From contig JASFEA010000087.1 of NCBI GenBank assembly GCA_050125095.1, positions 1-13,355 on the forward strand: 13,355 nt of DNA. The letters are read 5' to 3'. Source of the stretch: a bacterium (GTDB lineage Bacteria > Arandabacterota > Arandabacteria > Arandabacterales > JALGWA01). Position 1 is the first letter of the stretch, and the number at the start of each line of letters is the position of its first letter. Of this stretch, positions 133 to 13,355 are shown piece by piece. The notes under the pieces are model-generated. The model was not told the origin of the DNA. It did no database searches and was given only the letters and a program-made list of their open reading frames with translations. A program made the translations under genes and the position numbers.

Positions 133-1065
133 ATGAGCTGGTTCAGGCGAATTGAGAAGGGCCTGAAGGGCAGCGACAAACGCGACCTGCCTGACGGGCT
201 GTGGCGGAAGTGCGACGCCTGCGGCGAGATAATGTATGAGCGCGTTATCGAGCGCAATGTATGGACCTGCATGAAATGCGGCCATCACTTCATTATCTCG
301 GGCCACCAGTACGCCTCGATACTTGCCGACCAGGGCACCTTCGAGGAAATGGACGCCGGCATGAGGTCCACCGACCCGCTGGGCTTCAAAGACTCAAAGA
401 GATACACCGACCGCATCCGCTCGTCCACCAGGAAGACGGGGCTTAACGAGGCCGTCGTGTCGGGAGCCTGCAAGATAGGCGATCATCCGGCGGTCGTGGC
501 CGCGCTGGATTTCAAGTTCATGGGCGGCAGCATGGGCTCGGTCGTGGGCGAGAAGGTGGCCCGCGCCACAAGGCGGGCGGTGGAGGACAAGAGGGCCCTG
601 GTGATAGTCTCGTCATCGGGCGGCGCCAGGATGCAGGAGGGCATACTCTCGCTGATGCAGATGGCCAAAACGAGCGCCTGGCTCACGCGGCTCTCGGATG
701 GGCACCTCCCCTACATTTCCATACTCACCCATCCAACGACCGGGGGAGTAACGGCGAGCTTCTCCATGCTCGGGGATATCATCATAGCCGAGCCCGGCGC
801 CCTCGTGGGCTTTGCGGGCCCCAGGGTGATACAGCAGACCATCAATCAGGACCTTCCAGAGGGGTTCCAGCGCGCCGAGTTCCTCCTGGCGCACGGCCAG
901 GTGGACATGGTGGTGGCCCGGCCGAGGATGAAGAAGACGGTGGTGGGGCTCCTGGACTTCTTCGGCGACATGGACAGGCCGGCGGAGGGCAGGGGAAGGC
1001 CGGCCATATTGACGACCCCGCCGCATATCCAGGTGAAGGCGGACGGAACCGACGGGAATGGGTAG
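133..1065 (+). CDS. accD: Acetyl-CoA carboxylase carboxyltransferase beta subunit
   Basis: GGAGG SD before ATG; Zn finger CDAC..CMKC; DPLGFKD, FMGGSMGSVVGEK, SGGARMQEG, PTTGGVTASF, GFAGPRVI, FQRAEFLL motifs; followed by folC as in the conserved accD-folC order. Confidence 0.98.
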   Translation: MSWFRRIEKGLKGSDKRDLPDGLWRKCDACGEIMYERVIERNVWTCMKCGHHFIISGHQYASILADQGTFEEMDAGMRSTDPLGFKDSKRYTDRIRSSTRKTGLNEAVVSGACKIGDHPAVVAALDFKFMGGSMGSVVGEKVARATRRAVEDKRALVIVSSSGGARMQEGILSLMQMAKTSAWLTRLSDGHLPYISILTHPTTGGVTASFSMLGDIIIAEPGALVGFAGPRVIQQTINQDLPEGFQRAEFLLAHGQVDMVVARPRMKKTVVGLLDFFGDMDRPAEGRGRPAILTTPPHIQVKADGTDGNG

Positions 1066-2359
1066 AAAGTCCTCTTACCGCTCTTCACTTGACTTCCTCC
1101 TCAATCTCCAGCGTTCGGGAATCAAGCTGGGCCTCGACAGGACCGTTAACCTCCTGGACGCCATAGGCAATCCCCAGGACCACTTCCGGAGCGTGCATAT
1201 AGCCGGCACGAACGGCAAGGGCTCCGTGGCCGCCTACATGAATTCCATCCTGTATCATGCCGGCCTGACGAGCGGCCTCTTCACCTCCCCGCATCTCGTC
1301 GAGTATACCGAGAGGGTGCGCGTCAACGGCGAGGCCATATCCCGCTCAGACCTCAGGTCGATCGTCTCGGACATCGCCGGCGCCGTGGCAAGCACGGAGG
1401 CGAGTTTCTTCGAAGCCACCACGGCGGTGGCGTTTGAACAGTTCCGCCGCAGGCGCGTCGATATGGCGGCGGTTGAAGTGGGGATGGGGGGGCGGCTGGA
1501 CTCCACCAATGTGCTAACCCCCGAGCTCACGGCAATAACCTCAATCGATTTCGACCATATGCGCTACCTGGGCAAGACGCTCGGCCTCATAGCCGGCGAA
1601 AAAGCGGGCATTCTCAAGCCCGGAGTGACGGTGGCCACGGCCGCGCTCAAGAAAGGGGCCAGGGAGGCGGTGATGAAAATCGCAAGGTCGCGCCGCTCCA
1701 GAGTCTACGAGATCGGCCGCCATGCGCGGTTCGAGATGCTCGGCATGGATATAGGAGGATGCTACTTCGAGTACCGCGGCCTCAGGGGCAGGCGCCTCCT
1801 CAGAACCGGCATGCCCGGCTGGCACCAGGCTGAGAACGCCAGCCTCGCGGTTCTGTGCGCCGAACTGCTTATGGAGCGGGGAGTGGCGCTCTCGGACCGC
1901 GCGATCGAGAGAGGCGTGGAAGCGGCCCTCTGGCCGGGGCGCCTGCAGGTTCTCTCGGAAGACCCCCTCATCATAGTCGACGGCGCTCACAATGTCGCGG
2001 GAGCGAGGATGCTGGCGAGGTCCCTGGAGGACATGGGCGTATTCCCGGCGATCACCGTGTTCGCGGTGCTGCGGGACAAGCGCTACAAGGACATGCTGAA
2101 GCATATAGCGAGCGTTACCCGCAGTTTCATCTTCACCAGGGCCGAGAACCCCCGCGCGCTGCCCGTCGCGAGGCTCAGGCAGGCCGCAGGAGAGCTGGGC
2201 CTCAAGTCGAGCGGCGTTGGACGCGTCGACCGCGCGGTCGACCGGGCGCTCGGACGGCTCGGCGAGGGCGACGCTCTCCTCATCTCGGGTTCGCTATTCG
2301 CGATCGGCGAGGCCATGCAACATATGGGTTTCGAACCCCAGCGCGTTCGGTTATGTTAA
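1058..2359 (+). CDS. folC: Bifunctional folylpolyglutamate synthase/dihydrofolate synthase
   Basis: HIAGTNGKGS P-loop, FTSPHL, EVGMGGRLDSTNV, DHMRYLG, EKAGI, WPGRLQ, DGAHN, GSLF motifs; overlaps accD by 8 nt. Confidence 0.97.
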   Translation: MGRKSSYRSSLDFLLNLQRSGIKLGLDRTVNLLDAIGNPQDHFRSVHIAGTNGKGSVAAYMNSILYHAGLTSGLFTSPHLVEYTERVRVNGEAISRSDLRSIVSDIAGAVASTEASFFEATTAVAFEQFRRRRVDMAAVEVGMGGRLDSTNVLTPELTAITSIDFDHMRYLGKTLGLIAGEKAGILKPGVTVATAALKKGAREAVMKIARSRRSRVYEIGRHARFEMLGMDIGGCYFEYRGLRGRRLLRTGMPGWHQAENASLAVLCAELLMERGVALSDRAIERGVEAALWPGRLQVLSEDPLIIVDGAHNVAGARMLARSLEDMGVFPAITVFAVLRDKRYKDMLKHIASVTRSFIFTRAENPRALPVARLRQAAGELGLKSSGVGRVDRAVDRALGRLGEGDALLISGSLFAIGEAMQHMGFEPQRVRLC

Positions 2360-2361
2360 TC

Positions 2362-2390
2362 TTGACACCTGAATAGCGGGAAGCTATACT
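2362..2390 (+). promoter_or_regulatory. sigma70-type promoter for the ABC ATPase gene
   Basis: TTGACA (2362-2367), 17-nt spacer, TATACT (2385-2390); GGAGG SD at 2416-2420 before ATG 2426. Confidence 0.8.
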
Positions 2391-2412
2391 CAATCCGCTT
2401 ATACTCAATCCG
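2385..2412 (+). repeat. 13-bp direct repeat TATACTCAATCCG x2 (15-bp period)
   Basis: Identical copies at 2385-2397 and 2400-2412, overlapping the -10 element and the predicted transcription start. Confidence 0.9.
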
Positions 2413-2425
2413 GTCGGAGGCAGAA

Positions 2426-3523
2426 ATGGCGGAAGTCGTTCTGGACAAGGTCACCAAGGTATTCGGAAGCAACGTGGTCGCGGTCGACGAGGCCAGCATA
2501 ACCATCGCGGACAAGGAGTTCGTCGTGCTGGTTGGCCCCTCGGGTTGCGGCAAGTCCACCTTCTTGAGGATGATCGCCGGCCTGGAGGAAGCTACCAGCG
2601 GGGAAATCTACATCGACGGCAAGATGGTGAACAACGTCGCTCCCAAGGACAGGGATATCGCGATGGTGTTCCAGAATTACGCCCTCTATCCCCATATGAC
2701 CGCGTTTGACAACATGGCCTTCGGCCTCAAGCTGAGGAAATACCCCAAGGACGAGATAGCCGGGCGCGTGAGGGACGCGGCCCAGATACTGGGGATAGAG
2801 AACCTCCTGGACCGCAAACCCAAGGAGCTTTCGGGCGGCCAGAGACAGCGCGTGGCCGTGGGGCGCGCCATCGTGCGGAAACCCAAGGTGTTTCTGTTCG
2901 ACGAGCCGCTCTCGAACCTGGACGCCAAGCTCCGTGTGCAGATGAGAACGGAGATCGAAAAACTGCACAACCGCCTGCAGACCACCATGATCTACGTTAC
3001 GCATGACCAGATCGAAGCCATGACCATGGGCACCAGGATTGTCGTCCTGAAGGACGGTCTCATACAGCAGGTCGCCGACCCCATGACTCTCTACGACGCC
3101 CCCGTCAACAGGTTCGTGGCCGGGTTCATCGGGAGTCCCGCGATGAACTTCGCTCACGGCAAGATGGCGGGAGACGGCGAGGCCGTCTTCGAAGAGGGCA
3201 CGTTCAATGTCCCGCTGCCGGCGGAAATACGGGGCAAGCTTGCGGATTACAAGGGCAAGGACATCATATTCGGCGTGCGACCCGAGGACCTTCACGCCAG
3301 GCCGCCGGAGGGAGCGGGAGAGCCGGTCTCGTTCAAGGCCACGGTGGAGGTGGTCGAGCCGATGGGAAACGAAATTTTCGTGTACGTGACGACCGGGAAT
3401 ACGCCGGCCGTCGCCAGGCTGACCACGAGGAAAGAGATTACGCCTGGCTCCCAGATCGAGCTTTTCATAGACATGCGCAGGATTCACTTCTTTGACGCCG
3501 GGAGCGAGGCCACTATAGTCTGA
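2426..3523 (+). CDS. ugpC: Carbohydrate (CUT1) ABC transporter ATP-binding protein, MalK/UgpC/MsmX family
   Basis: Walker A GPSGCGKST, MVFQNYALYPHM, signature LSGGQRQR, Walker B FLFDEPLSNLDAKLR, YVTHDQ, FIGSPAMN, C-terminal TOBE region (GVRPE, VVEPMG). The symbol reflects the family; substrate cannot be determined. Confidence 0.92.
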   Translation: MAEVVLDKVTKVFGSNVVAVDEASITIADKEFVVLVGPSGCGKSTFLRMIAGLEEATSGEIYIDGKMVNNVAPKDRDIAMVFQNYALYPHMTAFDNMAFGLKLRKYPKDEIAGRVRDAAQILGIENLLDRKPKELSGGQRQRVAVGRAIVRKPKVFLFDEPLSNLDAKLRVQMRTEIEKLHNRLQTTMIYVTHDQIEAMTMGTRIVVLKDGLIQQVADPMTLYDAPVNRFVAGFIGSPAMNFAHGKMAGDGEAVFEEGTFNVPLPAEIRGKLADYKGKDIIFGVRPEDLHARPPEGAGEPVSFKATVEVVEPMGNEIFVYVTTGNTPAVARLTTRKEITPGSQIELFIDMRRIHFFDAGSEATIV

Positions 3524-3580
3524 TAATACAGGGAAGAGCCTGCATATTTGTCTCGCCAGAGAAAGGTTGTCGGCTTCGCC

Positions 3581-6500
3581 ATGAGGGTCATCTTCCCCTG
3601 CCTGGTTCTGCTCTTTATCTTATCCCCTGTCCGGGCCGCAGAAGAGGCGTTTGACGTTTCCGCCGACAGGCTGTACGGCCGCCGGACAGCGGAAACCGAG
3701 ATCGTCGTCCTCAAGGACAATGTCAGGATAGTCCACGGCTCCACAGTCGCAACCGCCGACAGCGGCTTCTACGACAAGGCCTCCGAGACCCTCAAGCTCA
3801 TGGGCAGAGCGCGCGTCATGGAAGGGCCCGTGGAGGTGCGCGGAGACGAGTGCGTATACTTCAGGCGGGAGAGGAAGGTTATCTTCCCCCGCGGCATGCA
3901 GGCCCTGGACAGCCTCTCGATGGTCCTGGCCGACAGCGGATCGTATGAGCTCGATATGGAAGTGCTCGATGTCCGCGGCAACGTCTACTACGTAGAGGGC
4001 GACCGCACCATCGAGGCCGACCGCGCCGTCTACCACCGCAAGTCCGAGTTCATAGAGGCCGTGGGCTCCGTGGTCGTAGTCGATGCCGGCTATGGGGCCA
4101 CGCTCAGGGCCGAATACGTGACCTATGACCGGCTGGCGGGATACGGCATAGCCGTCGGGAACCCCGTGCTCGAGCTGAATAGCACGAGAACGGCGGCTGA
4201 GCCGGAATCGCAGGGGCCCTCCGGCGAATCCGTGGAGGGCGAGCCGGCCGACAGCGCGTCCGCCGCGGCAACCGGCCCCGTGCCCGGCGCCCCGCCCGGT
4301 GCCGAGCCCGGTGTCGCGCCCGTACCGGGACCCCGGGCGGCCGAGCCCGCTGCTGAAGAGCCCATCACGGTGAGCTCGGATTCCATGGAGGTCTTCGTAG
4401 ACGAGCACAGGGCCGTGGCCGTTGGTAATGTGAAGATAGTCCGCGGGAGCGTCGTGGGGACGGGCGGCACGGCCATTTTCCTCGACGATGAAGACAGGAC
4501 GATACTGACCGGCAGCCCCTTGCTCGTAGACGGCGAGAGCTCTTTAAGCGGCAATACCATAACCATGTTCAGCACGGGCAACGAAATATCCCGCCTCGAG
4601 GCGGCGGGAACCGCCAAGTCGGTATATCTGACCGAGGGCGGGGAGACGAGCGAGCTGACGGGCGAACATATCACCTTCTCGTTCACGCAAGGGGATCTCA
4701 ACCGCATGTTCGTGGACGGCTCGGCGAAGGGCATATTCTACCCGCCCGAGGCGGACTCGGCCGCTTCGGATTACAGTAACGAGGTTGCGGGCGAGACCAT
4801 CACCATCACATTCGCAGGCAGGGAGGCCGAGAGCGCCGTGGTGACGGGGGGAGTCAAGGGCTCTTACAGAATACAGGGCGACGAGTCCGAGGAGCCGGTC
4901 ACATACGAATGCGACAAGCTGATTTATCAGGTCACAAGCGCGGTCATGGTCCTTGACGGCAACGCGAGGGTCAAGTACGGCAATACGCGGCTCAATTCGC
5001 CGCTCATCGAATACGACTCGCGTTCGTATGTGCTCTTCGCGCCATCGGAACCGGAGCTCTGGGAGGGCGAAGACAGGATCACGGGCACCTCGCTTGCATA
5101 CAATCTGAAGACCCGCCGGGGATCCATCTCCGGCGGCGGCACCAATTACGAGAAGGGCTATTACACCGGCGAGCTTGTGAGGAAGGTGGGCGAGCGGGAG
5201 CTCAACGTCTCCAAGGGCACTTACACCACCTGTGAGCATACGGATGACCCCCACTATTCCTTCACTTCAAGCAAGATGAAGGTCTACCTGGACGACAAAG
5301 TCATAGTCAAGCCTGTCGTACTGAGGGTGCGCGGCATGCCGGTCTTCTGGCTCCCGTTCTACATGTTCCCGATAAAGAAGGGGCGCCACTCGGGCATACT
5401 TATGCCCCGGGTCGAATTCGGGTTCGACGAGGGCAAGGGGCGCTTCGTGCGGAACATCGGTTACTACTACGCTCCCAACGACTACTTGGATTTCTCGCTC
5501 TGGGGCGATTACTACGAGGACGACCGCTGGCTCCTGCATCTGGATTCCAGATACAAGCTCAGGTACGTGCTGAGCGGGGGATTCAATGCCTCATTCACCC
5601 AGGAGCTCGACACCGAGAGCCGGAGGTGGGACCTGGAGGGCAGGCACAGCCAGGAGATCGGCGAGGGAGGGAAGCTGGTAGTCCAGGCCGACTTCGTCAG
5701 CGATGAGAAATACCGTACGGAGACCAGCGAGAACCTGGAGAAGTCCCTGAGGCGCATCCTGGAATCGAGCGTTTCCTATACGCAGAGATGGGAGAAGAGC
5801 AGCCTCAGCATAGCCGCGGACAGGAAGGAGAACCTGGACACGGGCGAGATCACGCAGAAGCTCCCTACCTTCAACTACCTTACGAACAGGCGCACCCTCA
5901 TTGAGGCGTCGCCGGGCGAGAACCGGGTGCACCAGGGCACGTATATTTCAGGGAACCTGACTTTCAGCAACACCTCCAGCGACACGGAGCAGGACAGGAC
6001 CGACAGGCAAAGGGCCCAGCTCAACGCCGCCATTTCGTCCAACCTGAGATTCGCCGACGGCAATCACATTCTCAAGAACTCATCCGTGCTCTCAACCGAC
6101 AGAAAGCCCGGCGACGAGTGGTGCGCCGGATGCGACTCCACGATGCGGGCACACAGCGCCTTCAATAACAGGACGGACTTCACCTTCAGGCTGAACCCGT
6201 GGGCGTCGTTGAACGTAAATCCCAACGTGGCGGCTGCGATAACGGTCTACGATGAGGACATCGAGGGCCAGCGCCTCCCGTTGAGGTTAATATACTGGTA
6301 TTCGATAGCCTCCAACATCACCTTCTACAGAACCTTCAACACCAACCTGGGGGGCCTCAAAGCGCTGCGGCACGTGTTCCTGCCCTCGATAAACTACATA
6401 CATCGCCCCGACTTCTCGGAGTATTCGGGCAGGTTCTACAGCCTGCCCGGCGTAGGGGCCAGCGTGAACAAGTCTATGACCATGAGTATCACGCTCGAGA

Positions 6501-7177
6501 ACAGGTTCCAGGCCAAGATCGGCAGCGGAGAGGACGTAAAGAAGCTGAACAACTTCCTGACACTGACAACCTCTACCACGGCCGACTTCCTCTACAAGGA
6601 AAAGGGAGCCGAAACGCCCTTTTCCACTTTGAACTCGTCGCTCAGGTTCTACCCGCCCGGAGGGGTGAGATTCGACATCAACTTCACAAATGACCCCACG
6701 GACCTCTCCTTCGAAACGCTCAATCTCACCACGAGGTTCGCCTATACGGGCAAAGGTGCGCTGCTCCCGGGTTTTGAGGACCCCGATCGCCAGAACTTCG
6801 AGAGCATGAGGGATCTGACGGGCCAGACGCCATCCTACCAGTTCAACGAGCCCACGGCCAATCCCTGGAACGTATCCGTGATATACCGCCTCAACCGGAC
6901 GTTCGAGACGGGGACGCAGGCTCAGTGGCTCGAGATCCAGACGGGCTTCAACCTGTCCCGGAACTGGCGGGTGGACTACAGCAACCGCTATGACATCACG
7001 CAGCGCGAAATGGCCTACCAGGAGTTCTCGATATACCGGGACCTGCACTGCTGGCAGGCCAGATTCGTGCGCCGCTTCCAGAACGGCAACTGGCAGTATT
7101 ACTTCCGCGTCAACCTCAAGGCCCATCCCGACCTCTACGCCGAGCGCGGCCTCCGGTCGCTCGACCGCGCGTATTAA
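3581..7177 (+). CDS. lptD: LPS-assembly outer membrane protein LptD with extended multi-LptA/OstA-like N-terminal region
   Basis: Signal peptide MRVIFPCLVLLFILSPVRA (ATG 3581; in-frame TTG 3548 is the alternative start). Repeated beta-jellyroll signatures (V+ADR+Y, A+G+V+I, G+P+L). LptD hallmarks GTYTTC...PHY...K...VIVKPVVL...PVFWLPF, NIGYY..PNDY.D, and a C-terminal barrel ending FSIYRDLHCWQARF. Confidence 0.8.
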   Translation: MRVIFPCLVLLFILSPVRAAEEAFDVSADRLYGRRTAETEIVVLKDNVRIVHGSTVATADSGFYDKASETLKLMGRARVMEGPVEVRGDECVYFRRERKVIFPRGMQALDSLSMVLADSGSYELDMEVLDVRGNVYYVEGDRTIEADRAVYHRKSEFIEAVGSVVVVDAGYGATLRAEYVTYDRLAGYGIAVGNPVLELNSTRTAAEPESQGPSGESVEGEPADSASAAATGPVPGAPPGAEPGVAPVPGPRAAEPAAEEPITVSSDSMEVFVDEHRAVAVGNVKIVRGSVVGTGGTAIFLDDEDRTILTGSPLLVDGESSLSGNTITMFSTGNEISRLEAAGTAKSVYLTEGGETSELTGEHITFSFTQGDLNRMFVDGSAKGIFYPPEADSAASDYSNEVAGETITITFAGREAESAVVTGGVKGSYRIQGDESEEPVTYECDKLIYQVTSAVMVLDGNARVKYGNTRLNSPLIEYDSRSYVLFAPSEPELWEGEDRITGTSLAYNLKTRRGSISGGGTNYEKGYYTGELVRKVGERELNVSKGTYTTCEHTDDPHYSFTSSKMKVYLDDKVIVKPVVLRVRGMPVFWLPFYMFPIKKGRHSGILMPRVEFGFDEGKGRFVRNIGYYYAPNDYLDFSLWGDYYEDDRWLLHLDSRYKLRYVLSGGFNASFTQELDTESRRWDLEGRHSQEIGEGGKLVVQADFVSDEKYRTETSENLEKSLRRILESSVSYTQRWEKSSLSIAADRKENLDTGEITQKLPTFNYLTNRRTLIEASPGENRVHQGTYISGNLTFSNTSSDTEQDRTDRQRAQLNAAISSNLRFADGNHILKNSSVLSTDRKPGDEWCAGCDSTMRAHSAFNNRTDFTFRLNPWASLNVNPNVAAAITVYDEDIEGQRLPLRLIYWYSIASNITFYRTFNTNLGGLKALRHVFLPSINYIHRPDFSEYSGRFYSLPGVGASVNKSMTMSITLENRFQAKIGSGEDVKKLNNFLTLTTSTTADFLYKEKGAETPFSTLNSSLRFYPPGGVRFDINFTNDPTDLSFETLNLTTRFAYTGKGALLPGFEDPDRQNFESMRDLTGQTPSYQFNEPTANPWNVSVIYRLNRTFETGTQAQWLEIQTGFNLSRNWRVDYSNRYDITQREMAYQEFSIYRDLHCWQARFVRRFQNGNWQYYFRVNLKAHPDLYAERGLRSLDRAY

Positions 7178-7211: not shown

Positions 7212-7276
7212 TTGCTGGAACATTGCCCCGCCGGAGGGGTTTCAAGGTCTGTGTGATCGACGAAAAGGTGACTCAC

Positions 7277-8260
7277 TTGGGCAAATCCCTGTGCGTAGGA
7301 CTGGTTTTCTGGGTAGTTTTCTGCGGGGCGGCCTCTGCGGCCGTCAACTGGCATACGACCGATATCGACGTCGGGCGTATTTACAGGGACGAGCCGCAGA
7401 AGATGTCCTTCGGCTTCGTGAACGCGTCGGATGAGACCCTCTATATTTATGATATCGAGCCCTCATGCGACTGCACCAACGCCCAGGCCATACCCGCGGC
7501 GGTGCCTCCCCATAACTCGGGCGAGATAATGGCCTTCTTCGATCCAATGGGTTATGAGGGCAAGGGCAGGATAACCGAGTTCATCCGGCTCGCGACAAGC
7601 GACCCGGAGACCCCGGATGCGGAGCTTTACTTTACGGTTGACGTCGGCGTGGGCCCCGAGCCCGAGCCCCGCGCCCTCAATTTCGGGAGGATATGCAGGG
7701 GCAGTTCCGACACGCTGGCTCTGGTCGTGCGCCCGGGCTCGGACGACGATCTTGAGATACTCGGCTTCGAAAGCGAAACCGAGTGCGTGCATATAACCCG
7801 GGTGGGCCCCCATAAGGGCGGGGGCGAGGAGTTCAGGGCCATCGTCTGCAACCTGGACTGCAGGGGCGCGGTGTCGAGCTACGTCAACATCAAGACGGCG
7901 GACCCGAAGCGGGAAGTCATCAGGGTGGCGGTTAACGCCAACCTCATGGGGACTATAGTGATCGAGCCGGAGGTCATCGCCTTCGGGCCCACGCTGCCCG
8001 GGAAAGAGGTGGCGCAGAAGGTCAGGGTCTATTGCACCGAAAACCAGCGATTCGAGATAGGGAAGGTCACCTGCACGGCGAATTCGATCGATTGCAGCGT
8101 CACGCTTGCCGAAGAATACGTCTACGAGCTCAGAGTGGCCATTAAGGGAGACGCGCCAGCGGGGCGGGTCTCCGGACAGATACTCATAGAGACCGACTGT
8201 GAAAGCCAGCCCCTCCTGACCGCTAAGGTCACGGGCTATGTAAGGAGCGCGGATAAGTGA
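7277..8260 (+). CDS. Exported DUF1573-domain protein with tandem Ig-like domains and a CxC motif
   Basis: TTG 7277 follows AAGGTGA SD (GTG 7268 and TTG 7223 are alternatives); signal peptide MGKSLCVGLVFWVVFCGAASA; DUF1573 pattern ID+G.I...F.F.N....L.I..I.PSCDCT....VPP..SG.I; two further Ig-like repeats (LNFG, IAFG). The stop overlaps the next start (GTGA). Confidence 0.75.
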   Translation: MGKSLCVGLVFWVVFCGAASAAVNWHTTDIDVGRIYRDEPQKMSFGFVNASDETLYIYDIEPSCDCTNAQAIPAAVPPHNSGEIMAFFDPMGYEGKGRITEFIRLATSDPETPDAELYFTVDVGVGPEPEPRALNFGRICRGSSDTLALVVRPGSDDDLEILGFESETECVHITRVGPHKGGGEEFRAIVCNLDCRGAVSSYVNIKTADPKREVIRVAVNANLMGTIVIEPEVIAFGPTLPGKEVAQKVRVYCTENQRFEIGKVTCTANSIDCSVTLAEEYVYELRVAIKGDAPAGRVSGQILIETDCESQPLLTAKVTGYVRSADK

Positions 8261-8730
8261 CGGAAATACTGACGCGGGCGGTGAAAGAGGCCGTCATCAT
8301 CGTGATCATAGTCGTAATAGTCGCCATGGTGGTGAACCGCGCGCGGGATGAGGGAATCCCCCTTATTGCGGACGCGGAGACCTTCCGGGTGCAGACCAAT
8401 GCCGAGTTCCTGGTCGCCGCCGACGCCAGGGCGTATTTCGATGACGGGTCCGGGATCTTCCTTGATGCCCGCGAGGAGCGCCTCTATGCCGCGGAGCACA
8501 TAGAAGGGGCCCTCAACGTCCCTTCCACGGGCGGCGGTGTGGACGAGATGGCCTACATGGTCCCGGCGGACCCCGTGCTCATCTGCTATTCGGCCGAGAG
8601 CACCGAGCGCGAGGCCGGGGTGATAGCGGATAAGCTCCTTGAGCTGGGATTTACCAGAGTCTACGTGCTCCACGGCGGCCTGGAGGCATGGAAAGCCGAG
8701 GGCCTTCCGACTGTGAAGGAGAGCGAGTAA
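8257..8730 (+). CDS. Membrane-anchored rhodanese-like domain protein
   Basis: AAGGAG SD and GTG start; N-terminal hydrophobic helix; FLDAR....Y..EHIEGALNVP and LLELGFTRVYVLHGGLEAWK rhodanese signatures; active-site loop is atypical (ICYSAEST). Confidence 0.85.
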   Translation: MTEILTRAVKEAVIIVIIVVIVAMVVNRARDEGIPLIADAETFRVQTNAEFLVAADARAYFDDGSGIFLDAREERLYAAEHIEGALNVPSTGGGVDEMAYMVPADPVLICYSAESTEREAGVIADKLLELGFTRVYVLHGGLEAWKAEGLPTVKESE

Positions 8731-9201
8731 ATGAGCGATTTCAGATCGGTGGCGGAGAAGGTCTTCTCAAACAAGTATGTCGTGTTCGCCGCAAGGCTGA
8801 TCCTCGGAGTCGTGTTCATTTACGCTTCCCTGGAGAAGATCCAGAATCCGGAGGGATTCGCCCAGGCGATTTACAACTACAGAATGGTGCCCGAATCGCT
8901 GATAAATATAATGGCGATTCTGCTGCCCTGGCTGGAGCTCATTTGCGGCATCCTGGTTATCGTCGGCGTTTTCGTCAGGGGAAGCGCGCTCCTGATAGGA
9001 GCCATGCTGGCGGTCTTCATCGTGGCGCTGTCGAGCGCTCTCCTGCGGGGGCTCGACATCAGCTGCGGCTGTTTCACGCTTGAGGGGGGACGGGGCATTG
9101 CCGGCAAGACGCTTGTGGAGGACATTCTGCTCATGATATGCGTGGCCATAGCACTTCTCCACGGCGGCAAGGTCTTCTCCTTCAAGAAGGGGCTCAATTG
9201 A
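8731..9201 (+). CDS. MauE/DoxX family redox-associated membrane protein
   Basis: TAAATG coupling; RLILGVVFIYASLEKIQNP..FAQAI.NY, LPWLELICG and GLDISCGCF (MauE-type CGC) motifs; about four TM helices. Confidence 0.9.
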   Translation: MSDFRSVAEKVFSNKYVVFAARLILGVVFIYASLEKIQNPEGFAQAIYNYRMVPESLINIMAILLPWLELICGILVIVGVFVRGSALLIGAMLAVFIVALSSALLRGLDISCGCFTLEGGRGIAGKTLVEDILLMICVAIALLHGGKVFSFKKGLN

Positions 9202-9226: not shown

Positions 9227-9262
9227 TAGGCGGCAAAAAGCATGAGATCGGGGGGTTTTCTT

Positions 9263-10627
9263 ATGAAATCGAGTTGGCACATATTCCTCACTCTCACGCT
9301 GCTGTGCCTGCTCACGTCGATGCTGGCGGGCGGTGTCTGCAGCGCCGAGGAAAAGCGCATTATGATCGCGGTCACCGGGGACACCCAGGGCGAGATCGCC
9401 CCCTGCGGGTGACACTCGAGCGATAAGGGTGGTCTGGCCCGGCGGGCCGGCTTCGTTGATTCACTTGCTGAGGAGTACTCCAATTTGCTGCTCCTGGACG
9501 CGGGCAACTTCTTCGGCAGAAGGAGTCCGAGCAAGGAGAAGACGTATACCAAGGTGGTAATCGATTATATGAGGAAGACCGGGTATGACGTGGTCGGTAT
9601 CGGCGAGAGGGAAATGAACTACGGGCTCGCCTTCCTAGATGAGCAGATAAAGCAGGGACAGCTCGAGGCGGTATGCGCCAATCTCTATAATGGCAGCGAC
9701 TCGAGCCTCGTGTTCAGGCCGTACACCGTGCGTGAAGTGGGCGGAGTCAGGATAGGCATCATAGGCCTTCTGAACGACGATCCGCGCAGGGTGGGCGTTT
9801 TCGAGCAGCTGGAAGGCGTCTATGTCACCAATTACTATGAGGCCGCCTACGAGTTCCTTCCCGAGATCGAAGACAAGGCCGACATCGTCATAGCGCTCGC
9901 CGCCATCGGGCTGGGCAACGCCAAGCAGATGGTCAAGGACATCCCGGGTTTTGATGTCGTGCTGGTCGCCCACGGGGCCGACAGGACCCCCATGGCCGAG
10001 AAGGTCAACGAATCCATCATAATGAAGCCGGGCACCAAATCGAGTTCGCTGGGGACACTGCTGCTGGTGTTCGACGAGAACAACACTCTGATCGGCTATG
10101 ACGGCTACACGCACATGCTCAAGAAGAAGGGGCGGACCGATCCGCAGGTCGACAAGGTCGTGAAGGCCTGTGAGGAAAGCGAGGAGCAGAGGGCGAAGCT
10201 CCTGGCCAGGCGCAAGTACAAGCTCCCCAACATACCGCAGCGTCCCGAGGTGCTGGCCGCAAGGGGATATCTCGGATGGAACACGTGCCAGAAGTGCCAC
10301 GGGAAGATCCACGAGAGATGGTCGGAGGGCCCCCACGCGCACGCGTTTGAGACTCTGGCGGCCGACGACAGGTGGAACGATCCGGCGTGCCTGCCGTGCC
10401 ACGTGACCGGTTATGAGATCGCGGCCCAGCGGGATTCATCGGATATAAAGCCCGAGATGTGGAACGTGCAGTGCGAGGCCTGCCACGGCCCGGGTACGAT
10501 GCACCGGCGCGACGGCACCATGGCTCCCGTCGGCGAGAGCGTGTGCCTGAAATGCCATACGCCGGAATGGAGCCCCGACTGGAACTACGAGGAGGCGCTC
10601 AAGCGCGTCGACCACGGAAAGGAATAA
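9263..10627 (+). CDS. Predicted selenoprotein: exported UshA/5'-nucleotidase-like (CxU) domain fused to a tetraheme c554-type cytochrome c (454 aa, Sec at codon 50)
   Basis: ATG 9263 is in frame with the 9485 ORF. Translation: MKSSWHIFLTLTLLCLLTSMLAGGVCSA|EEKRIMIAVTGDTQGEIAPCG-(TGA 9410-9412)-HSSDKGGLARRAGFVD...LLLLDAGNFF. The domain continues across the TGA and a SECIS-like hairpin follows. Four CxxCH motifs at 10286, 10388, 10472 and 10544. Confidence 0.85.
9405..9468 (+). promoter_or_regulatory. Bacterial SECIS-like stem-loop for UGA 9410
   Basis: Upper stem CTGGCCC (9434-9440) / GGGCCGG (9444-9450) with G-led loop GGC; AGCGA (9419-9423) / TCGTT (9453-9457); lower stem GCGGGTGA (9405-9412) / TCACTTGC (9461-9468) containing the UGA. 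Folded by eye. Confidence 0.6.
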
Positions 10628-10637
10628 GGACAGAGGA

Positions 10638-10775
10638 TTGAGGTCCAAAGCGCTCACCATATTATTCATCTTCGTCTTCCTTGTTCTGCTCATAGCGGGC
10701 ATGCGCATGGGCGAACTCGGAGAGAATCTCTTCAACGGCAGCGTGCTATGACTGTCCTGCATAGGGATCGGGTGA
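10638..10775 (+). CDS. Predicted small membrane selenoprotein with C-terminal UxxC-IGIG motif (CD1871A-like CxxC family, 45 aa, Sec at codon 38)
   Basis: TTG 10638, 10 nt after the upstream TAA: MRSKALTILFIFVFLVLLIAGMRMGELGENLFNGSVL-(TGA 10749-10751)-LSCIGIG*. Matches small TM peptides ending CxxCIGIG that precede 4Fe-4S membrane proteins, with TGA at the first Cys position. Confidence 0.85.
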
Positions 10776-10813: not shown

Positions 10814-11659
10814 ATCGTCGCCAGCATCGGTAGTTTCCTCAGGAAGCGCAGAGTCATACAGGCCATCTCCGCCTACGCCCATAACTTCTATATAACCGGA
10901 TTTATCAGCGTCGGGCTCTACCAGGGCGTCATGAAGAGCTTCTGCGCGCCCGGGCTCAACTGCTATGCCTGCCCTGCCGCGACCTTTTCCTGCCCTATCG
11001 GAACGCTTCAGCACTACGGCGTGGTCCGGCAGGTGCCGTACTTTCTGCTGGGATTTCTCGGGCTCGTCGGCCTGGGCGTAGCCAGGTTCACATGCGGCTG
11101 GCTCTGCCCGTTCGGTTTCTTCCAGGACATGATGAAGAAGATATCGAAGCGCGTGGTGCCGCTTCCGCCGCGGCTGACGTATCTCAAGTACGCTTTTCTC
11201 ATCGTGCCGGCGATTCTGCTGCCCATCTATCTGGGCGATTCCTGGTTCTCGAAACTCTGTCCGGCGGGCGGCCTGACTGCGGCGCTTCCCTGGGTGCTCA
11301 TGGACACGTCGCGGTCGGAGTCTCTCATGGGGATGGAAGTGAGACCCCTGGTAGGTACCCTCTTCTATATCAAGATGGTGATACTCGCGGCCTTCCTCGT
11401 GGGCATGGTCTTCATAAAGCGCCCCTTCTGCCGCCTGATGTGCCCCCTGGGAGCCATACTCTCGCTGTTCAACCGGTTCAGCATATTGCGGCTCAGGGTC
11501 GAAAAAGCCGCGTGCACCGGTTGCGGCCAATGCCACGCCAACTGCCCGGTGGACATATACCCCTACACCGAGGTCGACTCGCCCAACTGCATCAAGTGCC
11601 TCGAATGCACCAGGTGCCCCGAGGGCGCCATCAGGATTCAAGCGGTGCTGGGCAGGTAG
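10814..11659 (+). CDS. Membrane 4Fe-4S binding protein (NapH/MauN/RdxA-like polyferredoxin)
   Basis: CAPGLNCYACP..SCPIG, RFTCGWLCPFG, FSKLCPAG, RPFCRLMCPLG, CTGCGQCHANCP, CIKCLECTRCP; several TM helices. The frame is open back to TAA 10796-10798 and contains the family-typical RRVIQ N-terminus. The start is placed at ATC 10814 behind AGGAG and is uncertain; the first ATG is 10931. Confidence 0.8.
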   Translation: MVASIGSFLRKRRVIQAISAYAHNFYITGFISVGLYQGVMKSFCAPGLNCYACPAATFSCPIGTLQHYGVVRQVPYFLLGFLGLVGLGVARFTCGWLCPFGFFQDMMKKISKRVVPLPPRLTYLKYAFLIVPAILLPIYLGDSWFSKLCPAGGLTAALPWVLMDTSRSESLMGMEVRPLVGTLFYIKMVILAAFLVGMVFIKRPFCRLMCPLGAILSLFNRFSILRLRVEKAACTGCGQCHANCPVDIYPYTEVDSPNCIKCLECTRCPEGAIRIQAVLGR

Positions 11660-11661
11660 GC

Positions 11662-12411
11662 ATGGCTGGGGACTGGCGGGACGCGCTGGCCGGGCTCAAC
11701 CTGACCCGCGACTCCTATGTTACCGTTCTTACGGGCTCCGGATTCTCGGCCGAGAGCGGGGTTCCCACTTTCAGGGGCGAGGACGGCCTCTGGAGGAACT
11801 TCCGGGCCCAGGACCTGGCGACCCCCGAGGCCTTCGCCAGGGATCCCCGGCTCGTCTGGGAGTGGTATGACTGGCGAAGGGGCATAATAGCGGGTAAAGA
11901 GCCCAATCCCGCGCATTACGCCGTCACCGACCTTGAGAACATGTTCGAGCGATTCCTGCTTATCACGCAGAACGTCGACGGCCTTCACCGCCGCGCGGGC
12001 ACGGTGAAACTCGTGGAACTCCATGGATACATATTCGGGATGCGCTGCACGGCGGATGGGACGGTAACAGAAAACCTCGAAGTGCCGCTTGCCGCTATAC
12101 CGCCTGAGTGCGATTGCGGGGCGATGCTCCGGCCCGATGTGGTCTGGTTCGGGGAGGCCCTGCCGGAGCGCGCGATAACCGCAGCGCTCGACGCCTCGCG
12201 CGAGTGCGACCTCATGCTGGTCGCCGGCACGGCCGCAGTCGTCCAGCCCGCCGCTTCCATGCCGCTCATGGCCAAGCAGGCCGGCGCCTTCGTAATCGAA
12301 ATAAACACCGAGTTCACGCCCATATCCCCGTATGTCGACCTGACGCTCCAGGGCAAGGCGGGGGCGATGATGACGCAGATGGTGTCGGCCTTGAGAGACC
12401 TCATAACTTAG
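11662..12411 (+). CDS. cobB: NAD-dependent protein deacylase, class III sirtuin
   Basis: ATG 2 nt after the upstream TAG; VLTGSGFSAESGVPTFRG, WEWYDWRR (Tyr/Arg pair of desuccinylase-type CobB), ITQNVDGLH, ELHG, LRPDVVWFGE, VQPAA, IEIN motifs. Confidence 0.95.
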   Translation: MAGDWRDALAGLNLTRDSYVTVLTGSGFSAESGVPTFRGEDGLWRNFRAQDLATPEAFARDPRLVWEWYDWRRGIIAGKEPNPAHYAVTDLENMFERFLLITQNVDGLHRRAGTVKLVELHGYIFGMRCTADGTVTENLEVPLAAIPPECDCGAMLRPDVVWFGEALPERAITAALDASRECDLMLVAGTAAVVQPAASMPLMAKQAGAFVIEINTEFTPISPYVDLTLQGKAGAMMTQMVSALRDLIT

Positions 12412-12468: not shown

Positions 12469-13355
12469 ATGAGGTATCGCTTCGCCACACCTTCTTTCCT
12501 TATAGCTCTGGCCCTCAGTCTGCTCATAGCCCTCGCTTTCACGGCGCCGGCGGCCGCCCAGGATGATCCCAGGTTCATATCCTTCGACGAGGCCGCGCCC
12601 GAGACCGACCCGGACCACAACAGCAACGCCGAAGCCGATCTCACTTACACATACGGCTACGTGGCCGGTGACACTCTTGTTATCGAGCTCGACTTCGCGA
12701 GCGAGTGGGGCGAGATGCACCTTATGGTTGCGCTGGAGCGGAACCGCGACGCCGATGGGGGCGCCTCAGACCCCTTCGAGTTCCCCGTGACGTACGGGCA
12801 CGCCGACAAGCCCGACTACGTCTTCACATACAAGTACAGCGCAAACGACTATGCCGACCTCAGGCGCTGGGGCGAGGGCGCCTGGGAGTTCTGGGCGCTC
12901 AGCAAGAGCACCTGGACCACGGATGAGGGGGATCCCGACAAGAACGCCCTCGGCATGGTGACAAAGACGGCCGATAAGGTCGTCTTCGCCTTCCCGTTCG
13001 ACGCCGTGGGCGGCGTGGCCCCGGACGATACCGTAATGGTGGAGGCCTATGTGACGCAGGAGCCGGGCGGTACCAAGTACAACGCGCTTGACTCCAACCC
13101 CCACGACGCTACCAATGACATGCTGCCCGACGCCGGAGACTGGACGGACACGGCCACCGAGACCGTGAACCTCTCGCAATGGGCCGAATGGGTGATTCCC
13201 GAATTCGGCGCCCCGCCCGCGCTCTCGGAGGCCGCAGCCGACCCGGATACGGTGCGGGGCTCGGAAGATGTGCTATTCAGCGTGCGGGTTACGGACGCCG
13301 GCGGGGGCATAGGCGACGTTACCGTCAACCTCTCGGCGCTCGGCGGCGAGGCGGA
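12469..13355 (+). CDS. Large secreted protein, 5' part (acidic beta-sandwich, possibly DOMON-like carbohydrate-binding domain plus Ig-like domain); truncated by the window edge
   Basis: AAGGGA SD and ATG 12469; signal peptide MRYRFATPSFLIALALSLLIALAFTAPAAA|QDD; open frame with no stop to the window end (hence absent from the ORF track); Asp/Trp/Thr-rich; ends ...VLFSVRVTDAGGGIGDVTVNLSALGGEA. The coding call is strong; the function is weak. Confidence 0.7.
   Translation, partial: MRYRFATPSFLIALALSLLIALAFTAPAAAQDDPRFISFDEAAPETDPDHNSNAEADLTYTYGYVAGDTLVIELDFASEWGEMHLMVALERNRDADGGASDPFEFPVTYGHADKPDYVFTYKYSANDYADLRRWGEGAWEFWALSKSTWTTDEGDPDKNALGMVTKTADKVVFAFPFDAVGGVAPDDTVMVEAYVTQEPGGTKYNALDSNPHDATNDMLPDAGDWTDTATETVNLSQWAEWVIPEFGAPPALSEAAADPDTVRGSEDVLFSVRVTDAGGGIGDVTVNLSALGGEA

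Follow-up and report, generated by a model that had tools for sequence, protein, structure and literature searches.

The locus and its interrupted gene

The stretch of DNA that we analysed, referred to here as the window, is 13,355 nt long. It carries the gene of a UshA-like (seleno)protein whose C-terminal part is a four-heme domain; this gene is flanked by genes for a DUF1573 protein, a rhodanese-domain protein and a MauE/DoxX protein on one side and by a gene for a NapH/MauN-like polyferredoxin on the other (Table 1). Frame 1 of the four-heme gene runs from ATG 9263 to TAA 10625-10627 and contains exactly one internal stop, TGA 9410-9412. The version in the open reading frame track begins only at TTG 9485; it has 380 aa, opens with LLLLDAGNFFG and is without a leader. 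Reading through the TGA adds MKSSWHIFLTLTLLCLLTSMLAGGVCSA and then IAVTGDTQGEIAPCG-U-HSSDKGGLARRA at the N-terminal side of this truncated protein. The sequence-only reading had pointed out that the track protein has four CxxCH motifs and yet no leader, and that read-through provides one; we reach the same result from the sequence and from the leaders of homologs. The gene could alternatively start at an in-frame ATG at 9242.

Table 1 Coordinates of genes and features in the window
Feature	Position	Strand	Basis or remark
DUF1573 protein, C82-D-C84 at 7466-7474	7223..8260	+	upstream; Pfam, NCBIfam
Membrane-anchored rhodanese-domain protein, Cys110 at 8584-8586	8257..8730	+	start overlaps DUF1573 stop
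MauE/DoxX membrane protein, C112-G-C114 at 9064-9072	8731..9201	+	ATG abuts rhodanese stop; ends in TGA
UshA-like (seleno)protein gene with C-terminal four-heme domain	9263..10627	+	454 residues on read-through
N-terminal hydrophobic leader, residues 1-28	9263..9346	+	sequence, model helix, aligned leaders of homologs
5'-nucleotidase-type metallophosphoesterase fold, about residues 31-290	9353..10132	+	fold and profile matches
C48-G49-U50 motif, TGC GGG TGA	9404..9412	+	predicted Sec codon 9410-9412
Predicted SECIS hairpin within the GGLARRAG codons	9432..9452	+	core stem 9434-9440/9444-9450, loop GGC 9441-9443
Long linker helix, residues 294-319	10142-10219	+	after the phosphoesterase fold, AlphaFold2 model
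Four CxxCH motifs (C342, C376, C404, C428) at 10286-10300, 10388-10402, 10472-10486 and 10544-10558; c554-like domain about residues 335-454	10286..10558	+	PF13435
NapH/MauN-like membrane polyferredoxin (Fer4_5)	10931..11659	+	downstream; scores below curated cutoffs

The leader was called from the sequence, from a helix at residues 3-22 in the AlphaFold2 model and from the alignment with the leaders of homologs. Its lipobox is non-canonical, with Val at position -1 of Cys26. On this basis, the leader is probably a Sec-pathway signal peptide.

Profile scoring, in which Sec was read as Cys, placed the protein in the NCBIfam family NF041198 (UshA_like_PCGU, "UshA-like (seleno)protein"), with a score of 282.3 bits where the cutoff is 275. 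Both the N-terminal domain (residues 14-310 to model positions 5-306, 161 bits) and the heme domain (residues 333-443 to positions 402-519, 121.9 bits) match the model, and the family signature of PCG[U/C] before GGLARRA is found as APCGU HSSDK GGLARRA. The protein differs from the model in that its margin is only 7 bits and that positions 307-401, between the two domains, are unmatched. These matches assign the gene to a family of predicted selenoproteins that is already on record. At E <= 1e-30, the family has 519 cluster representatives, and its genomic relatives number at least 569. The sequence-only reading had described the gene as hidden, which is true for ORF callers, as they miss it, but not for curated profiles, as NF041198 already includes the heme domain. 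The combination of a UshA-like protein with four hemes and a probable export leader is borne out by NF041198, by PF13435, by the four CxxCH motifs and by the leader gained on read-through.

A selenoprotein described as "COG0737, UshA-like, CxU" was listed by Zhang & Gladyshev in 2008 (PMC2398784), and the UshA-like CxU selenoprotein is also tabulated in two reviews (PMC9312934, PMC13188914). The tables and passages on the family in these three papers mention neither a function nor heme, and the Discussion of the 2008 GOS study left UshA-like proteins out of the families with Cys-based redox motifs (PMC2398784). The earlier statement that UshA-like proteins with PCGC or PCGU are predicted selenoproteins of unknown function is thus in agreement with NF041198 and with these listings. 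The same reading had called exported proteins with both heme and Sec rare. This was overstated, as PMC13188914 also lists ExtKL (NF040886) and the octaheme tetrathionate-reductase family (TIGR04315), both of them exported multiheme c-type cytochromes with one Sec. The window protein is distinct from these two families, scoring only 17 bits for the first (cutoff 250) and 16 bits for the second (cutoff 375) and having a different architecture.

A closer relative is NF049981, the UshA-like (seleno)protein family 2 (CxxU), which shares the N-terminal strand, the motif and the GGLARRA helix (E 1e-10). The window protein differs from it in score (41 bits against a cutoff of 140), in having CxU instead of CxxU and in carrying hemes. 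Heme-less paralogs that share the same strand, motif and helix were seen at four of the sampled loci (L007, L014, L019 and L009). Membership in SoxB (TIGR04486) was considered and rejected (66.3 bits against a cutoff of 550).

Predicted selenocysteine at UGA 9410 and the hairpin that follows it

An alignment of homologs had been proposed as a check on the Sec codon. In this alignment, column 50 is Cys in 77/77 full-length homologs, with no other residue, and column 48 is Cys in 77 of the 78 rows. At the DNA level, at least 569 genomic relatives were ranked by their similarity to the Sec-form query and the best 80 were sampled; the N-terminus was present in 76 of these loci, which gave 82 gene copies. 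The codon at the Sec column is TGA in 62/82 copies and TGC or TGT in 20/82, proportions that may overstate the share of Sec, given that the query behind this ranking was itself in the Sec form. The TGA copies represent many phyla-level MAG lineages; across loci, the peptide flanking the TGA/Cys column is conserved on either side. A FastTree phylogeny of 79 heme-bearing copies contains at least seven changes between Sec and Cys, four of which are forced by starred branches. All 54 of the closest database proteins (58-91% identity) are cut at the N-terminus and cover 63-87% of the query, which is what gene callers do at a Sec codon.

The TGA is followed by a hairpin with a 7-bp stem and a 3-nt apical loop (GGC), located 28 nt after the UGA and with a folding energy of -12.7 kcal/mol. 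As given in the legend to Fig. 2 of PMC13188914, a bSECIS has an apical loop of 3-9 nt with a G within its first two positions, a stem of 4-16 bp, a distance of 16-37 nt between UGA and loop and an MFE <= -7.5 kcal/mol; the hairpin in the window agrees with all of these published rules. Across 61 TGA genes, 90.0% of the cells in the hairpin are paired and there are 46 double changes, a result matched by 0/500 shuffles. In the same register, 57.3% are paired in 19 Cys genes, a value matched by 95/500 shuffles. Where Cys paralogs share a locus with Sec paralogs (L048 and L079), the GGLARRA codons of the Cys copies do not form the hairpin. Folding of single sequences 3' of the TGA was no better than shuffles (z -0.11 and z -1.14), a measure that is uninformative here because the DNA has 61% G+C, and the significance of the hairpin arises solely in the comparison across homologs. 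The window had no Rfam match at gathering thresholds. The SECIS-like hairpin of the sequence-only reading therefore holds up, both in its fit to the bSECIS rules and in its covariation, which is seen in TGA genes and not in Cys genes. We predict that the hairpin is a SECIS that aids the decoding of Sec at UGA 9410. A SECIS placed inside the codons of a conserved protein motif, with Cys paralogs of the same genome as a control, would be a clean example of dual coding.

The alignment of the TGA with the Cys of homologs, the conservation of both flanks and the hairpin together argue that UGA 9410 is decoded as selenocysteine, as had been proposed; these are comparative predictions. ARAGORN found no tRNA or tRNA-Sec in the 13.4-kb window, and no family of the Sec machinery was found among 13 of its ORFs searched with Pfam or 10 searched with NCBIfam.

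Two other readings of the TGA were weighed. If it were a true stop, or stemmed from a nonsense mutation or from an error in sequencing, there would be a pseudogene here, or else two genes, one for a 49-residue leader peptide and one for a leaderless cytochrome from 9485. TGA does act as an ordinary stop elsewhere in the window, and the 380-aa form is the one given by ORF callers and public databases. However, a chance stop does not fit with TGA at the same column in most copies from so many lineages and Cys in the others, with a peptide that is conserved on either side, or with a covarying hairpin that is confined to TGA genes. Moreover, a c-type cytochrome without a leader cannot receive heme during cytochrome c maturation. 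We therefore strongly disfavour a true stop and consider it very improbable. The frame would also stay open if the organism used code 4 or code 25, in which TGA stands for an ordinary amino acid and position 50 would be Trp or Gly. This has virtually no chance of being correct: TGA is the stop codon of three neighbours, the ABC, DUF1573 and MauE genes, at the expected ends of their families, and the code is therefore the standard one. In addition, the homologous residue is Cys and never Trp or Gly, and the hairpin is specific to TGA genes.

A degenerate 5'-nucleotidase fold joined to a four-heme domain

The AlphaFold2 model of the protein (pLDDT 88.7, pTM 0.83) has its best Foldseek matches among 5'-nucleotidases (3ivd, 2z1a and 1ush; E 3e-25 over about 310 aligned columns), and a profile search likewise found 2z1a (E 2e-38). 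The match to Pfam PF00149 stayed below the cutoff (17.9 against 21.5 bits). With UshA and the CD73 family (1ush, 2z1a, 3ivd), the protein shares the fold of the N domain, the GG-x-ARRA helix and a long helix linking the two domains. It differs from them in that the metal ligands and the catalytic His are not conserved, in having a cytochrome instead of the nucleotide-binding C-terminal domain and in carrying CxU on the loop after strand 1. C48-G-U50 lies on this loop just after the strand, where the active enzymes carry their DxH metal ligands.

We mapped the columns of the metal ligands through the profile match and counted them over the 78 alignment rows. His is present in 4/78 at the DxH column, Asp in 30/78 at the GD column (column 82) and the His of motif IV in 32/78. 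At the Asn column of GNH, Glu (35) and Asp (14) are found and Asn is not among the seven commonest residues; the His column of the same motif has Arg (21) and Lys (9), with His again not among the seven commonest. In GHxH, the first His (column 237) is kept in 37/78, and the second position has no His among its seven commonest residues. None of the dimetal and catalytic ligands (DxH, GD, GNH[E/D], H, GHxH) is therefore conserved in the family. The corresponding positions in the window protein are D40/Q42, N82, E115/R116, A214 and H237/A239, and only D40 and H237 are retained, two of about seven. The N domain is thus predicted to retain a 5'-nucleotidase fold without most of its metal ligands. 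The sequence-only reading had recognised the first strand and helix of a metallophosphoesterase in the read-through segment, which Foldseek and the profiles support for the fold but not for the metal site, which is degenerate.

PF02872 (5_nucleotid_C), the substrate-binding domain of 5'-nucleotidases, has no Pfam match in the protein, and PF13435 is found in its place (51.8 bits against a cutoff of 20.8). Where true 5'-nucleotidases have their nucleotide-binding C-terminal domain, this protein has the four-heme module, joined to the N domain by the same kind of long linker helix. Profile searches matched this module to cytochrome c554 (PDB 1bvb/1ft5; E 4e-20 for 1bvb) and to the c554-like modules of multiheme cytochromes such as OcwA (6i5b, E 1e-22), and the module shares with them the combination of four hemes and three conserved extra His. 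In contrast to cytochrome c554, it is fused to a non-heme domain with the Cys/Sec pair and has no context of hydroxylamine oxidation.

All four CxxCH motifs are invariant in the 78 rows. Leaving aside Gly and structural positions, conservation reaches >=80% at C48 and C50, in the four CxxCH motifs and at three further His, namely H358 (78/78), H414 (77/78) and H451 (69/78, replaced by Cys in 7/78), and nowhere else. No Met, Lys or Tyr reaches >=80% in these rows. With four hemes and three conserved extra His, one heme is without a conserved sixth His ligand.

Redox neighbours and a possible role for the Cys/Sec pair

The DUF1573, rhodanese and MauE genes lie upstream both in the window and in L001-L005, where the DUF1573 orthologs retain EPSCDCT. 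The NapH/MauN-like gene, possibly an electron link to the membrane, was found in L001, L003, L004 and L005. These redox neighbours are limited to the clade of the window (5/80 loci), and elsewhere the family gene is surrounded by housekeeping genes. Fusion to DUF1573 domains, each with its own CxC, occurs in 6 of 21 long homologs. DUF1573 proteins are themselves listed as a selenoprotein family with a UxC/UGC motif (PMC2398784, PMC9312934). Fusions to DsbA-like domains were rejected as a strong redox link (3/6 reach the Pfam cutoff and 2/6 have CxxC). A clustering of neighbourhoods, in which shadow ORFs contaminated the clusters, gave a single wide association, with an LptD-type gene upstream in 38/81 sources. 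Taken with accD, folC and an HU-like gene, this association looks like synteny of lineages and not a functional link. Downstream clusters included a secretion ATPase, RNase T, a PLP enzyme and others.

Most metal ligands of the N domain are lost, and we therefore infer that a redox role of C48/U50, wired to the hemes, is the best account of the protein. This view is favoured because C48, C50, the CxxCH motifs and three His are the conserved non-structural residues, and because CxC-bearing DUF1573 modules are fused or adjacent, with a rhodanese and MauE (CGC) upstream. The pair would most likely be a redox centre that trades electrons with the hemes. It could work as a selenenylsulfide/selenol-thiol couple, or as a selenol beside the heme that has no conserved sixth His. 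By exchanging electrons with the heme chain, the Cys/Sec pair might make the protein a periplasmic thiol or chalcogen:cytochrome oxidoreductase. Candidate partners in the clade of the window would be the CxC-bearing DUF1573 protein, the rhodanese, the MauE/DoxX protein and the NapH/MauN-like polyferredoxin. The earlier proposal that the hemes feed electrons to a selenenylsulfide is a reasonable hypothesis.

The protein might instead still be a 5'-nucleotidase or SoxB-type hydrolase, such as a thiosulfohydrolase resembling SoxB, with the hemes serving to oxidise its product and the Cys/Sec pair as an auxiliary. The N domain does match 5'-nucleotidases and, more weakly, SoxB (TIGR04486, E 1.6e-18; 2wdc, E 1e-19), a rhodanese gene lies upstream and some members keep partial ligands at columns 82 and 237. 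However, the few ligand and catalytic positions left in the window protein, the lack of family-wide conservation at any of them and the missing 5_nucleotid_C domain make hydrolysis quite improbable. A role of C48/U50 in ligation, whether of the heme without a conserved distal His (in the sixth position) or of a soft metal or metalloid, would also differ from a dithiol-type couple. His/Cys hemes are found in TsdA and SoxAX. Here, H358, H414 and H451 are the only conserved extra His for four hemes, the one other set of conserved candidates consists of Cys48 and Cys/Sec50, and some rows have Cys in place of H451. Nevertheless, cytochrome c554 itself has one five-coordinate heme, and the missing ligand therefore needs no Cys; the DUF1573 modules found in fusions, which are heme-free, have CxC pairs as well. 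We regard a purely ligand role as unlikely.

As a whole, we consider it very probable that the gene encodes an exported selenoprotein of NF041198, in which Sec would be inserted at UGA 9410 by means of the SECIS and a degenerate 5'-nucleotidase fold is combined with c554-like hemes and a putative Cys/Sec redox centre. This corrects a truncated gene call, and the same truncation affects all 54 of the closest database entries. It also concerns a widespread family that has been listed among selenoproteins since 2008 and is given no function in the passages of the literature cited above. The degenerate metal site, the substrate-binding domain replaced by four hemes, the heme without a conserved sixth His and the fused or adjacent CxC-bearing DUF1573 modules narrow the hypotheses for this family to a heme-wired Cys/Sec centre that acts in redox chemistry or as a ligand. 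A more specific idea, which we hold to be unlikely, is a new type of periplasmic redox enzyme. In such an enzyme, a metal-free shell of the 5'-nucleotidase/SoxB kind would hold Cys-x-Sec at the old active site, facing the heme without a conserved sixth His in a c554-like wire, and the selenol would either ligate this heme (His/Sec) or form a selenenylsulfide that trades electrons with it. If true, the family may contain a naturally occurring His/Sec heme, a counterpart to the His/Cys hemes of sulfur-oxidising cytochromes, and would offer a way to oxidise or reduce thiols, persulfides or CxC-bearing DUF1573 modules without flavin or quinone.

Reading frame and the in-frame TGA

The plus-strand frame from ATG 9263 to TAA 10625-10627, for which the in-frame ATG 9242 is a possible alternative start, contains a single interruption, TGA 9410-9412. 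When this codon is read through, the frame encodes a 454-residue protein, of which a mechanical ORF list gives just TTG 9485-10627 (380 aa). The sequence-only reading had described a hidden selenocysteine (Sec) multiheme cytochrome here, and every element of that description (one in-frame TGA, a leader, C-G-U and four CxxCH motifs) is present.

Features of the Sec cytochrome, its window neighbours and heme-less paralogs in other loci (L numbers)
Feature	Position	Strand	Remarks
Hydrophobic leader MKSSWHIFLTLTLLCLLTSMLAGGVCSA	N-terminus of read-through protein	+	from sequence
Sec segment IAVTGDTQGEIAPCG-U-HSSDKGGLARRA	directly after leader	+	from sequence
Domain of ~260 residues	after Sec segment	+	
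Long linker helix	residues 294-319	+	between ~260-residue domain and heme motifs
Four CxxCH motifs	10286-10300, 10388-10402, 10472-10486, 10544-10558	+	
DUF1573 protein	7223-8260	+	C82-D-C84 (7466-7474); tightly packed upstream of Sec cytochrome
Rhodanese	within 8257-9201	+	upstream; membrane-anchored by N-terminal helix; Cys110
MauE/DoxX protein	within 8257-9201	+	upstream; C112-G-C114
NapH/MauN-like polyferredoxin	10931-11659		downstream of Sec cytochrome
Heme-less paralogs (approximate)	L007:6841-7950, L014:6784-7785, L019:9324-10300, L009:2681-3655		

The Sec column is Cys in all 77 full-length homologs aligned with the query, and both flanks are conserved, so the earlier reading of the TGA as Sec is sound. 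The Cys two residues before is kept in 77 of the 78 rows. Scanning one genome per species with a heme-domain pattern turned up at least 569 relatives, of which the 80 best loci were analysed. Four of these (L006, L021, L023 and L060) reach a contig end before the motif. The remaining 76 hold 82 gene copies with TGA (62) or TGC or TGT (20) at the Sec column, a ratio that may be inflated because loci were ranked by likeness to the Sec-form query. The first Cys is replaced by Ser in the TGA copy of L046. A FastTree phylogeny of 79 heme-bearing copies, from which a filter excluded four heme-less paralogs, requires at least seven Sec/Cys switches, four of them forced by well-supported branches.

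Two other readings of the TGA were weighed. A pseudogene, in which the codon would be a nonsense change, is effectively excluded; the peptide on both sides of the codon is conserved in every listed copy. The 54 closest database proteins (58-91% identity) all lack the N-terminus, with 63-87% of the query covered, the truncation to be expected when gene callers meet a Sec codon. A recoded genome is effectively excluded too: TGA is the stop codon of three genes in the window (ABC, DUF1573 and MauE), so it is not decoded as an ordinary residue in the source genome.

A hairpin with a 7-bp stem (9434-9440/9444-9450) and loop GGC lies 28 nt past the UGA (-12.7 kcal/mol). It falls within the four constraints that PMC13188914 (legend to Fig. 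2) gives for bacterial SECIS elements. Folded as a single sequence it is not better than shuffled sequence, and the evidential weight lies instead in comparison across genes. Among 61 TGA genes, 90.0% of the cells in a 9-pair helix pair and 46 are double changes, a level that 0 of 500 shuffles attain, and slid registers all reach 54% or less. In 19 Cys genes the same register pairs at 57.3%, which 95 of 500 shuffles equal or exceed. The hairpin is encoded by the L-A-R-R-A-x codons. L048 and L079 each have a Sec and a Cys copy, both encoding GGLARRA, and the pairing codons GCC-CGG-NGG-GC occur only in the Sec copy. Rfam contained no family matching the hairpin. As judged from these comparisons, the gene carries the signals for Sec decoding, and a dual-coded SECIS with Cys copies in the same genome as controls is possibly new.

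The UshA-like family and its two domains

The protein matches NCBIfam NF041198, 'UshA-like (seleno)protein', at 282.3 bits (curated cutoff 275). Scanned by halves, the protein aligns to model positions 5-306 with its N part and to 402-519 with its heme part (121.9 bits for the latter); the four-heme module is therefore already part of the curated family. The GOS study lists 'COG0737, UshA-like, CxU' with 76 Sec sequences in its table, and its Discussion keeps UshA-like separate from families with Cys-based redox motifs (PMC2398784). 'UshA-like protein, CxU' is also tabulated in the reviews PMC9312934 and PMC13188914. The available portions of these three papers mention neither a function nor hemes for the family, and literature excerpts joining selenoprotein, multiheme and UshA yielded nothing beyond table listings. 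The Sec cytochrome is a further member of a known, curated, functionally uncharacterised selenoprotein family, and its novelty is modest.

A confident AlphaFold2 model from 78 sequences (pLDDT 88.7, pTM 0.83) has an N domain that superposes on the 5'-nucleotidases 3ivd, 2z1a and 1ush (E down to 3e-25), structures that the family profile matches too (E 2e-38). Ligand columns were mapped through the profile alignment to 5'-nucleotidases and counted over the 78 rows; the family conserves neither the metal nor the catalytic positions. The window protein has D40 at the Asp of DxH, H237 at the first His of GHxH (His in 37/78), Q42 at the His of DxH (4/78), N82 at the GD Asp (Asp in 30/78), E115/R116 at the GNH Asn/His (family mostly Glu/Asp and Arg/Lys), A214 at the motif IV His (32/78) and A239 at the second His of GHxH, where His is not among the seven commonest residues. 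By this alignment the N domain has lost its metal site, possibly a new observation for the family. The CxU follows the DxH position by 5-7 residues, on the loop into the GGLARRA helix, which would place it in the old active site.

Unlike true 5'-nucleotidases, the Sec cytochrome lacks the nucleotide-binding C-terminal domain. After the linker helix comes a c554-like domain (PF13435, 51.8 bits; family profile against 1bvb, E 4e-20, and 6i5b, E 1e-22), and a heme module in place of the substrate domain is possibly new. Only three His outside CxxCH are conserved, H358 (78/78), H414 (77/78) and H451 (69/78, with Cys in 7/78), and no Met, Lys or Tyr is conserved at 80% in the 78 rows. Three such His for four hemes leave one heme without a conserved sixth-side ligand, unless C48 or U50 serves; this missing His is possibly new.

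Heme-less paralogs of ~280-330 residues with a CG(U/C)...GGLARRA start (three TGA, one TGC) lie directly upstream of the heme-bearing copy in L007, L014 and L009 and just downstream in L019. These paralogs may represent the stand-alone 'UshA-like family 2' type. In three giant relatives of ~1200 aa (P0123, P0132 and P0146) the UshA-like plus four-heme unit is C-terminal; a DsbA-like stretch lies mid-protein, and a second motif, EPC(E/D)C, lies near the N-terminus.

Gene neighbourhood and fusions

The redox neighbours recur as a set only in the closest five loci (L001-L005), with the polyferredoxin missing from L002; L058 and L061 hold partial copies on the opposite strand. The rhodanese and MauE genes show translational packing: the GTG start of the rhodanese overlaps the stop codon of DUF1573, and the ATG of MauE follows immediately on the stop codon of the rhodanese. 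The MauE CGC resembles the CGU/CGC of the Sec cytochrome. EPSCDCT is invariant in the five DUF1573 orthologs. The window DUF1573 protein scores 51.6 bits against NF041425, the OS_HP2/DUF1573 selenoprotein family (cutoff 100), and its CDC is the Cys form of that family's UxC/UGC motif. Tables in PMC2398784 and PMC9312934 list DUF1573 proteins as selenoproteins with UxC or UGC. DUF1573 is fused in 6 of 21 long homologs scanned, each with CxC in the DUF1573 domain and EPCGC in the UshA-like domain; this CxC/DUF1573 link is possibly new. Six other long homologs gave DsbA- or GILT-like matches (3/6 above the Pfam cutoff, 2/6 with CxxC).

Upstream on the same strand, accD, folC, (ABC ATPase) and an LptD-type gene occur in 38 of 81 sources, among them the window (133-7177) and loci in the range L002-L077. 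The LptD-type product is a 1209-aa LptD_2/LptA-repeat outer-membrane protein, with seven Cys in the window copy, and L016 has a 99-aa HU-like gene between this block and the Sec cytochrome gene. This order looks like lineage synteny of Eisenbacteria, Krumholzibacteriota, Fibrobacteres-like and Gemmatimonadota MAGs. Unrelated housekeeping genes lie downstream in most other loci.

A 37-residue hydrophobic ORF just 3' of the Sec cytochrome gene (10638-10751) had no family match and no tblastn hit in the loci, weak evidence for so short a query, and may not be a gene. The listed 439-aa Sir2 ORF (11092-12411) overlaps the polyferredoxin gene; its Sir2 domain begins near residue 204, so the true start of this CobB-like deacylase is probably near 11700. 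The open-ended ORF 12469-13353 has a leader and 56-59% identity to counterparts in L001, L004 and L005, with no match in Pfam or NCBIfam.

Proposed working of the Sec cytochrome

Family membership, fold and the four heme motifs are established, as are the Sec decoding signals and the loss of the metal site. We propose that the Cys/Sec pair would be the working centre and would communicate with the hemes. Thiols, sulfur or selenium species, or CxC partner modules would be the substrates. Residual hydrolase activity of the UshA-like domain, which keeps the 5'-nucleotidase fold, is unlikely. C48/U50 may alternatively act as a heme ligand or a metal-binding site. For a family listed as 'function unknown', the dead metal site, heme swap, missing His, CxC/DUF1573 link and dual-coded SECIS provide testable hypotheses.
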